Assembly (NCBI GenBank): GCA_963777955.1
Contig: CAVZSQ010000019.1
Span: 224,001 to 288,000, forward strand
DNA: 64,000 nucleotides
Origin: Calditrichia bacterium
GTDB taxonomy: Bacteria > Calditrichota > Calditrichia > JAJRVZ01
Reading direction: 5' to 3'
Below the pieces are notes generated by a model. It was not told the origin of the DNA, made no database searches, and worked only from the letters and a program-made list of their open reading frames with translations. A program made the position numbers and the translations under genes. Shown piece after piece: positions 49,151-59,132 of the stretch. Position 1 is the stretch's first letter. Each line of letters opens with the position of its first letter.

Positions 49151-50665
49151 ATGGGCGATAAGGATGCAGCACGGATTTTGGTCGTAGAAGATCATGCAGA
49201 AATGCTGCAGGTCTTGAAGAAATTTCTGAGTGAACGCGGATTTGAGATTATTGAAGCAGAATCGGGGGAAATTGCTTTAAATCTGATCAACAAGACAAAA
49301 CCTGATATAATATTGTTGGATGTTATGTTACCTGGTATTTCGGGTATTGAGGTCACCCGGCAGGTCAGGACCAACGGATTCAGTGATAATTATATTCCGA
49401 TCATCATGCTGACCGCCAAGAGCGAAATTAAAGATGTGATCAGCGGTCTGGAGGTGGGTGCTGATGATTACATCATTAAGCCTTTCAGTTTCGATGAATT
49501 GATCGCCCGGGTAAACTCCGCGATCCGCATCAAGCGGCTTAATGATAATCTGCGCCTGAAGACGATTGAACTGGCGAATGCCAACCAGAAAATATACCAG
49601 TTGAATCAGGCTTTAATCGAGAAAAATAAAGAGTTACGGAAAAAAATCTATGACCTGCGCAATATTTTTGATATATCGCTGGAATTGCATTCCATACTGG
49701 ATGTAGATAGATTAATTAATTCGACCCTTTTGTCTTTGATTGGCAAGTTCAGTTGTAAAAGCGCTGTTTTTTTTCTATCGGCTAAAAGACATGAACACCG
49801 CCTGGCCGTGATCAATTCAAAAGGTCTATACAAATCAGAAACCGAAAACATGGTGATCCAGAAAAGCGATCCTTTGTTGACGCACCTGGCCGATCACCCC
49901 AATCCCATGCTGTTAAAGGATCTGCCGGTACCGATCAACAAATCGGCAGGTGTACAGGCCTTACAGAAAATTGGTATTGAACTGATCTCGCCTATCTCTT
50001 CTATTCATGAGGGGCAAAAGGCTTTGATCTGTCTGGGTCCGCGGGTCAATAATAATCCTTACACGGACAATGAGATAGAACTATTAATGACCGTCAACAA
50101 TATCGTTTCCATTGCACTCTCCAACGCTGCTCTGTATGATGAAGTCACGGAATTGTCCTATACCGATGGTATGACCGATCTGCATAATTACCGCTATTTT
50201 GAAATGCGTTTACGTGAAGAAGTATTACGGCATGCCCGTACCAAACAAGACGTATCCTTGATCATCATGGATGTGGATTTCTTTAAAAATTATAATGATA
50301 CTCTGGGCCATCAGGCCGGTGATATTGTGCTGAAGAAATTAGGCCATATCCTGAAAGAGACGGTTCGTGAGAACGATATTGTGGCCCGCTACGGCGGTGA
50401 AGAATTTGCCGTGATACTTCCGGGAGTGAGTAAAGAGGGAGTGATCATACTGGCCGAAAGGTTACGGGCCCGGGTGGAGGAAACAGATTTTCCCAATGAA
50501 GAGGTTCAACCTTCCGGCAGTTTGACCATCAGTGTGGGTACCGCTTCTCTGCCTTATGATGCCCAGGATAGTTCAAATTTAATCTACAAAGCAGATACCG
50601 CGTTGTATACTGCAAAACGCAGCGGTCGCAATCGCGTGGTTCAGTATAGTACCGATCTGAAATAG
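49151..50665 (+). CDS. Response-regulator diguanylate cyclase (REC-coil-GAF-GGDEF)
   Basis: REC (ED, D, T, KP), D.D.FK.YND..GH..GD, RENDxxxRYGGEEF. Confidence 0.93.
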   Translation: MGDKDAARILVVEDHAEMLQVLKKFLSERGFEIIEAESGEIALNLINKTKPDIILLDVMLPGISGIEVTRQVRTNGFSDNYIPIIMLTAKSEIKDVISGLEVGADDYIIKPFSFDELIARVNSAIRIKRLNDNLRLKTIELANANQKIYQLNQALIEKNKELRKKIYDLRNIFDISLELHSILDVDRLINSTLLSLIGKFSCKSAVFFLSAKRHEHRLAVINSKGLYKSETENMVIQKSDPLLTHLADHPNPMLLKDLPVPINKSAGVQALQKIGIELISPISSIHEGQKALICLGPRVNNNPYTDNEIELLMTVNNIVSIALSNAALYDEVTELSYTDGMTDLHNYRYFEMRLREEVLRHARTKQDVSLIIMDVDFFKNYNDTLGHQAGDIVLKKLGHILKETVRENDIVARYGGEEFAVILPGVSKEGVIILAERLRARVEETDFPNEEVQPSGSLTISVGTASLPYDAQDSSNLIYKADTALYTAKRSGRNRVVQYSTDLK

Positions 50666-53084: not shown

Positions 53085-53429
53085 TTACACTCTGGAGAAA
53101 CTTTTAATTGCTGCTGCTGTGTTTTCATAGATATCAAAAACCTTATCCAGGCGCGTTATCTGGAATACGTAGCGGACCGCGGGCCGCAGCCCTGCCAGTT
53201 TGATATCGCCGTTGTTCATGCTGGCCTGTTTCAAGCCGGCCAGCAGAGAACTGAGGAATGAACTGTCGGTGAATTCAATCTGGCTCATATCAATGATGAC
53301 TTTTGTACTGCCTTCTTTTATAAGCTTGGTCAATTTTTCTTTAAGTAAGTCGGCCGTATCAACAGTGGCCCGCTTAATCTCTACACTGAAAATCAGGATA
53401 TCATCAAGCACTTCACTTTTGATGGTCAT
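53085..53429 (-). CDS. STAS-domain anti-anti-sigma factor
   Basis: IID.S.IEF.DSS.L and VFQITRLDKVF.IY. Confidence 0.9.
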   Translation of the reverse strand: MTIKSEVLDDILIFSVEIKRATVDTADLLKEKLTKLIKEGSTKVIIDMSQIEFTDSSFLSSLLAGLKQASMNNGDIKLAGLRPAVRYVFQITRLDKVFDIYENTAAAIKSFSRV

Positions 53430-55201: not shown

Positions 55202-55475
55202 TTACCTGACTACGTCCTTCAGACCTTTTCCTGCTCTAAACACTGGTACTTTTCTGGCTGGAATTTTAATAGTAGCGCCGGTTTGAGGATTACGGCCCAT
55301 ACGCGCACTACGTTTACTTACATTAAATGTACCAAAACCAACCAAGCCGACACTATCACCTTTTTTCAATGCAGTCTTTTACTCCTTCCAAAAAACTGTC
55401 CAGTGATGCTTCTGCATCTTTCTTAGTCAGACCGGTTTTCTTGGACATATGATTCACTATCTCTTGTTTAGTCAT
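55202..55475 (-). CDS. hup: DNA-binding protein HU, one extra base in an A-run near 55378; missed by the ORF track
   Basis: MTKQEIV...TKKDAE then GFGTF....[26 protein letters not shown]. Length 274 nt = 273+1. AAGGAGG RBS. Confidence 0.93.
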
Positions 55476-55699: not shown

Positions 55700-55885
55700 T
55701 TACTGGCGGCAGAAATCATCGCTATTTCTGATTTCGTTTTTAATAATTGAAGAAACCACTGTCTCCAGTACCTCGCTGCGATCATAAAATTTATTACGAA
55801 TGCGCAACTGAATTAATTCTATTTTTTCTTTCTCAAATTCTTTATTAACCGGAGCCAATTTTTTCCCCTTGATGTTCTCTTCCAT
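55700..55885 (-). CDS. Small FlgM-like anti-sigma28 candidate (61 aa)
   Basis: EKIELIQLRIRNKFYD..EVLE.VV..I resembles the FlgM C-terminal sigma-binding helices; sigma28-type promoter upstream; downstream of fliA. Confidence 0.6.
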   Translation of the reverse strand: MEENIKGKKLAPVNKEFEKEKIELIQLRIRNKFYDRSEVLETVVSSIIKNEIRNSDDFCRQ

Positions 55886-55911
55886 TCTCTCACCGCTTTC
55901 CTCTATGATAA

Positions 55912-55938
55912 TAGTCGGTTTGATCAGTAAGAACTTTA
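55912..55938 (-). promoter_or_regulatory. Sigma28 (FliA)-type promoter
   Basis: TAAAGTTC-N11-ACCGACTA vs consensus TAAAGTTT-N11-GCCGATAA; 26 nt upstream of ATG 55885. Confidence 0.7.
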
Positions 55939-56004
55939 TTAATGTTTCCGGTAAAAAGCATTTTGGCTGGAAACTGTACAACGGCAGGATGGCGGAACTG
56001 GCAG

Positions 56005-57153
56005 TTAAGAACGGGTCAGACTTTTCAGTTCTACAATAAAACGGTTACCGACCGGATTCTCTATGTCAAGCAACATTTTCCCTGCATGTGCATCGATAGC
56101 CATTTTGCAGAAAGTCAGTCCTAAAGCACGTTCCACGCGGTAACCCTTATTCTTTAATTCAACCTGGGAAAACTCATCAAATATTTTATCCTGGTATTTT
56201 TTAGGTATTTGGGTGCCATTATCATGTACGGTAAAACGGACACCATCGAGATCGATTTTTTCTGTTTTCAGCACCACCTGACCACCGTCTCCGACATTAT
56301 TTGTGGCGAAACTGATCAGGTTTTCTATTACCCGTTCTATTACCGACTGATCTAAAATCATTTCGTCCAGTTCCGGGTCAAGATTAAGTTGAACCATTTT
56401 GTTGGCATTTTCCGGATATTCGCGCACACGCTGAACGATATTGGTAATAATTGTATTAATTTTGGCCATATCCCGCTTCAGCGTAAGGGTGCCATCCTTG
56501 ATCCGTGAGATATCCAGCAGATTGACAACCATACGCAACAATTGCTGTACTCCGCGTTCGATCCGGTTGGAATATTTTTTTAAGTTATCTACCGACGTCG
56601 AACCTATGGTCATCTCCATCATCTGCAGATTCCCCTGGATGACGAACAGGGGATTCTTCATATCATGCACGATCAGATTCGTGAGGTCTTCCTTGAATTT
56701 ATCCATATGCAACAGCGTTTCATTCTTTTTAGCCAATTGCAGATTCTTTTCCTGCAATTCGTCATGATATTCTTTCAGGCGCAGCAACGACTTGACCCGG
56801 GCCAGTAATTCAACATTCTCAAACGGTTTGGAAATAAAATCATCCGCCCCGACATCCAGAGAATGTATTTTATCTTTCAGATCTTTCAAAGCGGTAATCA
56901 TGATGATCGGGATAAATTTTGTCCGCTGATCATTTTTTAACCGTTCACATACACCAAAACCGTCCAGTTTGGGCAACATAATATCCAGCAGGATGATCTG
57001 CGGATTTTGCCGAAAGGCAAGTTCCAATCCGCTTTCCCCGTCAGTTGCCGTGAAAATCTGATACCCCTGAGGTTTCAGGAAGTATAATAATAAATCCAGA
57101 TTCTCCTGGCTGTCTTCAATAATTAAAACTTTTTGCTTTTTGGATGCAGGCAT
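56005..57153 (-). CDS. Hybrid REC-HisKA-HATPase protein with degenerate ATP-binding boxes
   Basis: Intact REC and HDMKNPL H-box; N-box NLISFA, G1 DNGTQ, G2 ERALG. Confidence 0.88.
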   Translation of the reverse strand: MPASKKQKVLIIEDSQENLDLLLYFLKPQGYQIFTATDGESGLELAFRQNPQIILLDIMLPKLDGFGVCERLKNDQRTKFIPIIMITALKDLKDKIHSLDVGADDFISKPFENVELLARVKSLLRLKEYHDELQEKNLQLAKKNETLLHMDKFKEDLTNLIVHDMKNPLFVIQGNLQMMEMTIGSTSVDNLKKYSNRIERGVQQLLRMVVNLLDISRIKDGTLTLKRDMAKINTIITNIVQRVREYPENANKMVQLNLDPELDEMILDQSVIERVIENLISFATNNVGDGGQVVLKTEKIDLDGVRFTVHDNGTQIPKKYQDKIFDEFSQVELKNKGYRVERALGLTFCKMAIDAHAGKMLLDIENPVGNRFIVELKSLTRS

Positions 57154-57327
57154 AGCGCTAACCGGTTTTGTTTGTTCTTACGATTAATAAAATATAATAT
57201 AATCGTTCTTTTAATTCCAAACATTTTTATTTCGGTTAACACCACTCTGAAGTGGTACGGGATATATAAAATAAATAATGCAGTTATCTTAGATCAGATC
57301 CAGTTGTTCAGCTATCAGACGACCGGC

Positions 57328-58086
57328 TCAGGCATAAATCATTTTGTTGATTGATTTTTTCAGTTTACCCATCGTTTCAGAATGAATCTGCGAAATTCTT
57401 GATTCCGATACATTCAGTATCTGACCGATTTCTTTAAAGGTCAATTTTTCATAGTAGTAAAGGGTGATGGCCAGCCTGGTTTTCTCCGGTAATTGCTTTA
57501 TGGCTTTTAATAAAATTCGTTTCATTTCTTCCTCTTCCATTTTAAAATCGGGATTCTCTTCTTCTTCATCTTCGATCATATCGTAGAGATTTTGTTTATA
57601 GGTGTCATCAATAGGTTTATCTAAAGAAAGCATATTCACGCTGGTAATTTCCTTTTTCCAATTCTGTAATTCACTCATATCGATGCTCAGGCTTTTGGCG
57701 ATTTCCTGATCAGAATATGACCCGCCAAACTTCTGATCCAGTTCAACCATTTTTTCCTTAATCATGTTGGTTCGACTGCGCAGTGAACGCGGGATCCAAT
57801 CCAGTTTGCGTAATTCATCGATGATTGATCCTTTAATCCGCGGGATCGCATAGGTTTCAAACTTGATTCCATAATCCATATTAAATCGTTCCAGCGCTTC
57901 GACCAATCCCAGGATCCCAATATGATAAAGATCTTTTTCCTCGATAGCATGTGGAAAGTTTTTGATCATTTTGCGGACTACATATTTTACCAATCCAAGA
58001 TAACGCAGCACCAATTCCTGGCGCAACCGGGTGGTGGCGTTGGCTTTGTACATTTTCCAGAGTTGCATTGTAGTTAGATTTTTCAT
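57328..58086 (-). CDS. fliA: RNA polymerase sigma-28 factor (FliA/WhiG family)
   Basis: FETYA..RIKG.I.DELR..DW.PRS.R and LYYYE.LT.KEIG.IL.VSESRISQIH. ATG 58086 has a GAGG RBS (58101 is the alternative). Confidence 0.93.
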   Translation of the reverse strand: MKNLTTMQLWKMYKANATTRLRQELVLRYLGLVKYVVRKMIKNFPHAIEEKDLYHIGILGLVEALERFNMDYGIKFETYAIPRIKGSIIDELRKLDWIPRSLRSRTNMIKEKMVELDQKFGGSYSDQEIAKSLSIDMSELQNWKKEITSVNMLSLDKPIDDTYKQNLYDMIEDEEEENPDFKMEEEEMKRILLKAIKQLPEKTRLAITLYYYEKLTFKEIGQILNVSESRISQIHSETMGKLKKSINKMIYA

Positions 58087-58122
58087 GGGACCCTCGTTCA
58101 TTAATAGTGCGAATAAAATGGA

Positions 58123-58139
58123 TGCATTTTATATGCCAA
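58123..58139 (-). promoter_or_regulatory. Sigma54 (RpoN) -24/-12 promoter upstream of fliA
   Basis: TTGGCATATAAAATGCA (GG-N10-GC); AT-rich tract with IHF-like TATCAATAAGATA at 58180..58192. Confidence 0.65.
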
Positions 58140-58297
58140 TTTTTTTAAATTTTCGATTATTAGTTTATAACTTTATTATTATCAATAAGATATAAAAATA
58201 ACTAGCCTGCCGGTTACACTCTTAAATCACCGATTTCAAGTCCAAAATGCCTTGATTTTAAACACCTCAACTGACTGAAAATCGGACACTTGCTGGC

Positions 58298-58330
58298 CCA
58301 CCTTAAGGGTGCCATGCACCCTTAAGGTGG
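58298..58330. repeat. Perfect 15-bp inverted repeat
   Basis: CCACCTTAAGGGTGC-cat-GCACCCTTAAGGTGG. Confidence 0.8.
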
Positions 58331-58407
58331 TATGGTTTGGTATAAATTTTGATATGTATTTATGGAGGTTCAAACCATCGGAAAATCGTTAAATATGAGC
58401 AAACATT

Positions 58408-59132
58408 ATGCAGAAAAAGTTATATCAGCTAATCAATACTCTACTATTTCAACCCATACATTGATCTTTTCTTCCCTGCTCTGTGTTTTATTTGCGAAAA
58501 CCGTTTGGAAAGTAATCGTAAAATTGTTTGTATTCACTGTTTAAAGCAAATCCCTGGATCTGATCCGGCAGCAAATGCTCCCTTTCCCGATAAAAAATTT
58601 AATCAGGCTTTTATTCTGTACAATTTTAATGAAAGTGTCCGCCTGCTTGTTCATCTGTTAAAATATAAAGGTTACTTTACGCTGGCGGATTACTTTGCCG
58701 ACGCTATCGTGCAATCATTCCCCCGGTTGTTGAATACCAATTATGATTATATCCTGCCTGTACCTTTGCATCAAACACGGTTACGGGAAAGAGGTTTTAA
58801 TCAAAGCGCTATACTGGCAGCCGCCATCGGCAAGGAAACTGGGCCGGGCCATGTCTGAAAATATTCTGACCCGCCGGCGTAATACTCCTTCCCAGACTCA
58901 TTTGAACCGAACTCAGCGGCTGCGGAATGTTAGTGATGCTTTTTATTGCCAGGCTATCCGTTCAGATGCCCGTATTCTGATCATAGATGATGTCATTACC
59001 ACCGGTAGTACGGTTAACGCCTGTTGTCAGGCTATGCGGCAGGCCGGAGCTGCCGAGATCGATGTACTGGCCCTGGCGCATCCAGCAGCGACTGCAGCGC
59101 ATGATTTAATCAGCAATGCAGAAATTATCTAA
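58408..59132 (+). CDS. ComF family phosphoribosyltransferase-like protein, frameshifts near 58456 and 58832
   Basis: Reconstructed FP..C..C...C..C Zn ribbon, LKY, PVPLH..R..ERGFNQS and IIDDVITTGST. Confidence 0.88.

Follow-up and report, generated by a model that had tools for sequence, protein, structure and literature searches.

In the FliA-FlgM systems described in the cited passages of PMC8306008 and PMC3930126, the anti-sigma factor FlgM is relieved by export, with Helicobacter pylori as an exception. Here we analyze a block of three genes, coding for a sigma28 factor, a hybrid protein with receiver, HisKA and HATPase_c domains, and a FlgM-like protein of 61 amino acids (aa), in 64,000 nucleotides of Calditrichia bacterium DNA (GenBank assembly GCA_963777955.1, contig CAVZSQ010000019.1, positions 224,001 to 288,000; this whole stretch is referred to as the window). 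We find that the block is a genuine regulatory module, maintained by selection at the level of the class, and that it represents a variant of the FliA-FlgM system.

The FliA-FlgM checkpoint that operates under sigma54 in Vibrio and Pseudomonas (PMC3930126, PMC8306008, in the parts cited) has in common with the block a sigma28 of the same family, an flgM gene under a sigma28 promoter, and a sigma54 tier with an enhancer. Unlike that checkpoint, the block lies in a genome without an export apparatus, its FlgM is only 49–69 aa long, its targets are not flagellar, and a pseudokinase gene is placed between the genes for the sigma factor and its inhibitor. The block would work like a sigma54-governed FliA-FlgM switch; it does not belong to the flagellar export checkpoint, the export apparatus that defines the latter having been looked for and not found. 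The FlgM of H. pylori is also short. As in the proposal made below, its relief is thought to occur without secretion; according to the part of PMC3930126 cited, however, that relief depends on FlhA and controls flagellin, whereas flhA is absent from 14 block-bearing genomes.

Redirection of a flagellar-clade sigma factor to non-flagellar genes is also described for Streptomyces WhiG-RsiG and actinobacterial WhiG1/WhiG2 (cited passages of PMC7005675 and PMC12871210), and in those lineages, as in Calditrichia, flagellar and non-flagellar sigma paralogues can coexist. The WhiG lineages have lost FlgM and use an unrelated anti-sigma factor dependent on cyclic di-GMP, whereas the Calditrichia block has kept a truncated FlgM. 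The RsiG family (PF22802) had no match in the genome holding the window, nor in any control genome. In Chlamydia, the histone-like gene hctB is a sigma28 target, which parallels the IHF-like target discussed below. Chlamydia likewise has a sigma28 with a small regulon in a non-motile bacterium, but belongs to a different phylum, and the passage cited describes neither FlgM nor a sigma54-driven block (PMC4598750). Within Calditrichia, a full flagellar set is reported for Caldithrix abyssi (PMC5317091, in part); the word "sigma" occurs nowhere in the main text of that paper, the supplements of which may list the block genes. This cultured species carries orthologues of the hybrid (P0106) and of the small protein (P0188, annotated as hypothetical). 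Literature searches on the module or the class, with subscription papers outside their coverage, found no publication on the module.

Conservation and gene content

The window belongs to contig C19 of a 4.24-Mb genome of class Calditrichia, 91.8% complete, which we call G000; other Calditrichia genomes are designated G001, G013, etc., and families f1 to f8. The block comprises the sigma gene, the hybrid gene and the small open reading frame (ORF), and the block families are f1, f3, f5, f7 and f8. All five elements of the initial annotation are present on the minus strand, in the order sigma54 site, sigma28 gene, hybrid gene, sigma28-type promoter and 61-aa ORF, with comF and hup flanking them and a STAS gene 2.3 kb away. 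Not in that annotation are the tandem enhancer at 58248-58290, the rpoN gene outside the window and, in another part of the genome, a chemosensory cluster. The elements of the block are as follows:

58248..58290, minus strand: putative tandem palindromic upstream activating sequence (UAS); two TGTCG-N~7-GACA-like boxes, spaced by 24 bp, at -152 and -128 relative to the sigma54 site
58122..58139, minus strand: sigma54 -24/-12 promoter TTGGCATATAAAATGCAT (TTGGCA-N7-TGCAT), kept in relatives
57328..58101, minus strand: FliA/WhiG-family sigma28, 257 aa; translation may start 5 codons further downstream
56005..57153, minus strand: REC + HisKA + HATPase_c hybrid (Pfam), 382 aa, predicted to be kinase-dead
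55912..55938, minus strand: sigma28 promoter TAAAGTTC-N11-ACCGACTA, 20.9 bits
55700..55885, minus strand: mini-FlgM, 61 aa; C-terminal helices only, of a FlgM-related family

Among 61 genomes of the class, the sigma factor is found at 51% identity or more in 58, while the hybrid and the small-protein profile are each matched in 57; a FHIPEP match is present in 39, two of which are partial only. Forty of 57 relative loci were fetched, giving 31 block-family loci with the window included. The hybrid gene directly follows the sigma gene in all 31, and the small ORF comes next in 30, being on another contig in the remaining one; the three-gene arrangement, the loss of which would have spoken against the initial annotation, is conserved. 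A search of a species-level genome collection with the small-protein profile found 30 loci, every one of them with a title that names Calditrichota, Calditrichia or a taxon below these.

One line of evidence that the block serves something other than a flagellum is its retention where flhA is missing. The block is present in 14/14 flhA-less genomes of the five block families, with both promoters wherever DNA is available. In three flhA-less pairs, separated by synonymous distances (dS) of 0.3–1.3, ratios of nonsynonymous to synonymous substitution (dN/dS) are 0.014–0.037 for the sigma factor, 0.024–0.065 for the hybrid (one pair saturated) and 0.09–0.15 for the small ORF; all three genes are under purifying selection in these genomes. 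G024 and G032 have the sigma factor and a short FlgM and show no match to the hybrid. In the same genomes, partial C-terminal FHIPEP matches lie in ORFs of 600-1800 aa (G024:C8 and C5; G032:C109), with no full flhA.

G000 itself, at 91.8% completeness, has no match to flhA or flagellin. It was also compared with 317 ORFs taken from flagellar regions in three relatives; for the flagellar structural and export genes of G013 and G014, the matches listed were generic paralogues only. The flagellar type III export apparatus and the flagellin that characterize a FliA-FlgM checkpoint were not found in G000; a complete flagellar system elsewhere in the genome would have spoken against the initial annotation. 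PilB and PilT likewise have no match above cut-off in G000, and type IV pili were rejected as a candidate output. A chemosensory cluster of ParA-like, CheW, MCP, Hpt-rich and CheA-hybrid genes occupies G000:C13:178252-187817, in a genome without flagella or a PilB/PilT match.

Flagellar systems and the origin of the block

Calditrichia has two flagellar systems, A and B; among the matches listed, G000 has no structural gene of either. System A was found at five loci in families f2, f4 and f6; its fliA, 54–57% identical to the window sigma, lies 3' of flhA-flhF-flhG and 5' of genes for an HDOD protein, a GAF kinase, the same hybrid and fapA. A gene for HU follows flgM in system A, as hup follows mini-flgM in 10/10 f1 loci. 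The fliA of system B is 28–34% identical to the window sigma and stands beside flhA, with no hybrid; a system B FliA occurs in 12 of 13 fetched loci of flagellated block-family genomes, the full-length FlgM of which adjoins fliD. In a quick tree, the block, A and B sigma factors form three groups (support 81, 89 and 91); B sits on a long stem, and the position of the root is left open. Descent from system A is therefore argued from sequence identity, gene order and the shared UAS, and not from a rooted tree. By these measures the block has the look of a regulatory leftover, condensed from a flagellar system that three other families still possess in full.

Five genomes of f2 and f6 that lack a full flhA hold a parallel relic: hup, a FlgM of 80–98 aa (called in four of the five) and, where the contig allowed, also fliW and an ORF with sigma region 4 only. 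The region-4-only ORF (77–86 aa; L195:17435-17692, L203:6050-6283, L199:5243-5500) lies beside fliW, near a system A flagellin or flgM, and is retained in flhA-less genomes. It might act as a decoy for FlgM, and has no match in G000.

The block might, alternatively, still be flagellar, helping to transcribe system B in flagellated Calditrichia and lingering as a vestige in the others. Cross-talk with system B is possible, since hits of 12–15 bits lie 5' of motA, an activator gene and a glycosyltransferase gene in the system B cluster of G013; moreover, flhA is present in 21/35 block-family genomes, and the regulon in G000 is small. Yet system B has a FliA and FlgM of its own, and four of its flagellin promoters lack the TAAAG...CCGA motif, although a system A flagellin carries the same type of sigma28 promoter. 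Together with the purifying selection and the intact promoters seen in flhA-less genomes, this makes a residual flagellar role, in our opinion, unlikely.

Enhancer, sigma54 promoter and sigma factor

The sigma factor is a FliA/WhiG-type sigma28, scoring 249 bits with TIGR02479 against a cut-off of 189.6, with Pfam regions r2, r3 and r4 all present in its sequence; orthologues are 63–98% identical across five families. Upstream of it, the sigma54 site has the highest intergenic score in G000 with a matrix built from relatives only, and is kept in all 29 block loci that have upstream DNA. The best UAS box reaches at least 10 bits in 28/29 block loci compared with 1/29 reversed controls, scored with a matrix trained on the same loci; in the 28 loci the boxes are 23–24 bp apart, approximately 130–150 bp 5' of the sigma54 site. 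The same matrix independently recovers the tandem 5' of the flgB promoter in the flagellar system A of a relative, and only one UAS-sigma54 pair exists in the whole of G000. We regard the tandem as a putative binding site of an enhancer-binding protein. A search for IHF sites between UAS and promoter gave matches in 19/29 loci with one mismatch allowed and no control, and is not counted as evidence. A near-perfect palindrome of 33 bp at 58298-58330 of the window was set aside as a small dispersed repeat, copies of which lie on C12 and C13 and also in G001.

As for the proteins needed, rpoN and enhancer-binding proteins, which the initial annotation proposed to seek genome-wide, are both present: rpoN lies 5 kb past the window edge, and G000 encodes 17 full sigma54 activator domains. 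With a GG-N10-GC -24/-12 element, a UAS, rpoN and activators, the promoter is predicted to be sigma54-dependent. Of the 103 activator loci in four relatives, 60 were fetched; several G000 activators have orthologues, e.g., C19:416068 at 64–67% identity in all four relatives, but none was singled out by a UAS as the activator of the block. Because the sigma54 activator is encoded elsewhere, the module is not self-contained, contrary to the initial proposal of a self-contained switch.

The short FlgM

The 61-aa ORF taken alone has no match in Pfam or NCBIfam, so that neither PF04316 nor TIGR03824 is reached above cut-off; most flagellar FlgMs of the class Calditrichia also fall below the Pfam/TIGR cut-offs. 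Its assignment comes from profile comparison, which bears out the initial description of the protein as FlgM-like. Outside its own family, the small-protein profile finds flgM of fliD-flaG-flgM operons, three of them above the Pfam cut-off. An alignment with 25 flagellar FlgMs of relatives gives an hhalign probability of 96.9% (E 1.8e-10) over 38 C-terminal columns. From 1.84 billion representatives, 40 of the 41 next-nearest proteins were scanned; 23 of these match Pfam FlgM, nine above cut-off. A PDB search with the mini-FlgM profile returned chance matches only and no FlgM chain. Homology to the C-terminal sigma28-binding domain of FlgM is shown by the alignment.

In flagellar FlgM the N-terminus carries the export signal, and the C-terminal part binds sigma28 region 4. 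The mini-FlgM family, 49–69 aa long as opposed to 99–147 aa for flagellar FlgM, lacks the N-terminal export region and the upstream helices: a helix motif derived from the alignment of flagellar FlgMs is present in 25/25 of these and in 0/30 mini-FlgMs. One could accordingly imagine a protein that descends from FlgM and is no effective inhibitor, the helices that block region 2 having been lost, so that it acts as a weak modulator or on another target. The failure of most members to match Pfam FlgM and of the profile to find a FlgM chain in the PDB would suit such a loss. The C-terminal FlgM pattern, however, is conserved, the small protein co-occurs with the sigma factor, and a sigma28 motif lies 5' of the small ORF in 30/30 loci; we therefore consider loss of inhibition quite improbable. 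The cognate sigma28 consensus is of the type TAAA-N15-GCCGATAA, and the footprint in all 30 loci is consistent with a cognate promoter.

Several further observations concern FlgM-like proteins. FlgM-like clusters of 63–67 aa in the Atlas (0.84–0.86; a lead only), commonest in Latescibacterota, Fibrobacterota and Planctomycetota, indicate that short FlgMs may recur in other phyla. Many proteins among P0267-P0306 have 143–168 aa with two FlgM-like C-terminal stretches in tandem; a 177-aa protein with such tandem stretches is encoded 3' of flagellin at L074 (G005), and several relatives have two adjacent flgM genes.

The hybrid protein

The altered ATP boxes reported for the hybrid in the initial annotation are a property of the whole orthologous family. 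The N-box Asn, present in the alignment in 31/31 other G000 kinases, is Phe in the window and Tyr or Phe in all 37 orthologues, and the second G1 Gly is absent in 37/37, leaving no DxGxG G1 box. The receiver Asp57 is kept in 37/37 orthologues and the H-box His163 in 36/37. The phosphatase motif, here H-D-x-x-N, is kept too; the HisKA phosphatase motif is given as D/E-x-x-T/N in the cited part of PMC12963549. Pfam detects no sensor domain. From these residues we infer a role as a relay or phosphatase.

The idea that the hybrid works as a kinase by means of an unusual nucleotide pocket, and is the true sensor of the module, is very hard to reconcile with an aromatic residue in every orthologue where other kinases have Asn, with loss of the G1 Asp in 8/37 and with the missing sensor domain, even though His163, the first N-box Asn278 (35/37) and G1 Gly313 are kept and many orthologues have a G2-like GRGLGL stretch. 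Other histidine pseudokinases or phosphotransferases with a HisKA-type fold and a degenerate ATP-binding domain are DivL, ChpT and Spo0B. PsmA (PMC12963549, cited in part) shares with the hybrid this fold and a degenerate ATP-binding domain; it lacks the His and the phosphatase motif, whereas the hybrid retains both together with an intact N-terminal receiver, as would a relay or phosphatase.

The ATP-lid region of the hybrid is strongly conserved despite the broken pocket, which would suit a binding surface, and the gene lies between those for the sigma factor and the small protein in nearly all block loci. Both facts could mean that the pseudokinase, depending on its phosphorylation state, sequesters mini-FlgM or sigma28 and so replaces export as the means of release. 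This we find improbable, as the same degenerate hybrid is already part of system A, which has a distant, full-length FlgM, the phospho-acceptor Asp and His are both kept as in a relay, and G024 and G032 combine the sigma factor and a short FlgM with no match to the hybrid. A sigma70-like promoter lies 5' of the hybrid in 18/29 loci compared with 1/29 controls; because of this promoter, the hybrid resembles an input to the module more than the embedded output implied by the initial annotation.

Sigma28 sites and candidate targets

In G000 a matrix scan found five sigma28 sites of 19 bits or more, compared with none in the reversed genome. Three are intergenic: one lies 5' of mini-flgM, another 5' of an IHF-like gene that follows mutS, and the third 5' of a gene in a polysaccharide cluster on C26. 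The other two (C3:115610, C22:691279) lie inside genes and were rejected as promoters. A strict sigma28 pattern gave 106 matches compared with 35 in controls across 61 genomes, partly by construction; in the 86 pattern sites examined, 37 of which are inside ORFs, the recurrent targets are mini-flgM, the IHF-like gene and wzc. Another site that recurs, inside an ORF of 163 aa in other families, was put down to conservation of the coding sequence and rejected.

A sigma28 site lies 159–217 nucleotides 5' of the IHF-like gene in 12/30 loci (two being the discovery loci) and in 0/30 controls. Similarly, a site precedes wzc, which functions in polysaccharide export, in 20/49 loci compared with 1/49 controls, and in 17/24 loci of f2, f4 and f6, seven of which belong to the discovery set. 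These footprints support the non-flagellar, partly surface-related output that had been suggested for the block. Apart from these targets, the flhA-less genome G053, the regulon of which is possibly expanded, has nine strict sigma28-type sites, one of them 5' of an RsbW-like gene found with such a site in G053 only and absent from G000, and a gene for a 73-aa MerR-type helix-turn-helix protein has a sigma28-type site in two f5 genomes (L271, L274).

Neighboring genes

Three genes near the block are worth listing:

55202..55475, minus strand: hup, coding for HU (Pfam Bac_DNA_binding); frameshifted in this assembly, intact in G001
58400-59132: comF; frameshifted in the window, intact in G001
53085..53429, minus strand: STAS anti-anti-sigma gene, a neighbor 2.3 kb from the block and probably outside the module

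Many other genes are also split, which suggests that the hup and comF frameshifts are assembly indel errors. Partner switching through the nearby STAS gene, one of the ways of relieving FlgM put forward initially, is not upheld: linkage occurs in 7/10 f1 loci and in no other family, as expected of f1-level synteny, and no STAS/RsbW-type linkage to the sigma gene was otherwise found. A diguanylate cyclase with REC, GAF-like and GGDEF domains is encoded at 49151-50665 of the window, 5 kb from the block.

Proposed mechanism and significance

We put at somewhat better than even the chance that the block is a remnant of an ancestral system A, kept for non-flagellar targets, in which sigma54-driven synthesis of sigma28 would be set against a buffer of non-exported FlgM, with the hybrid acting upstream. 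An enhancer-binding protein on the tandem UAS would activate sigma54-dependent transcription of the sigma28 gene, and sigma28 in turn would transcribe a small regulon, always including mini-flgM, in many species the IHF-like gene, and in some polysaccharide genes; the sites for both steps are conserved. Mini-FlgM, by homology, would bind sigma28 region 4. Since it cannot be exported, it is proposed to serve as a stoichiometric buffer and as negative feedback. With regard to relief, we infer that sigma28 would be active when sigma54-driven synthesis exceeds the buffer or when the buffer is degraded, a threshold or pulse thereby replacing the assembly checkpoint. The hybrid, incapable of autophosphorylation as its residues suggest, may be an Asp-to-His relay or else a phosphatase, and its point of action is most likely the activator's receiver domain, upstream in the module, and not FlgM. 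Speculatively, the product of the IHF-like gene might act back on the sigma54 promoter and so complete a positive loop.

Several observations weigh against this reading. The G000 regulon is thin, with hits of 17 bits or less at chance level (12 vs 10) and two of the five top sites inside genes. The IHF-like gene has no site at 13 bits in 18/30 loci; the wzc site is rare in block families (3/25), and the wzc of relatives has no match in the G000 assembly, which is 91.8% complete. Only 4/30 small-protein members match Pfam FlgM at E<=1 (best E 2.6e-4) and one of 30 matches TIGR03824. The sigma70 pattern has no match in the window's own spacer between sigma and hybrid genes, the activator of the sigma54 promoter was not singled out by the searches, and the quick tree does not fix the position of the root relative to the block, A and B sigmas. 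Of the initial interpretation as a whole, a non-flagellar output is supported, and neither of the two findings that would have spoken against it was made; STAS switching and self-containment are not supported.

More tentatively, one may envisage a class-wide, export-independent sigma28 switch with a FlgM shortened, apparently more than once, into a titration buffer, with a kinase-dead relay and with IHF feedback on the sigma54 promoter, commanding a nucleoid and polysaccharide program of sessile or developmental life; this possibility we rate well below an even chance.

In the parts of the papers cited, neither of the repurposed flagellar sigmas, WhiG and Chlamydia sigma28, has a FlgM as its partner. 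In the block FlgM outlives the export machine, which raises the question of how an anti-sigma factor that senses export could be relieved without it. The conserved enhancer, the two promoters and the pseudokinase are testable parts, and a cultured member of the class, Caldithrix abyssi, is available. The block offers a first entry point to gene regulation in a phylum of sediment bacteria that has received little study. If the more tentative reading is true, the export-independent switch would represent a stage, still extant, between the flagellar FliA-FlgM checkpoint and sigma factors that, like WhiG, have been repurposed completely.

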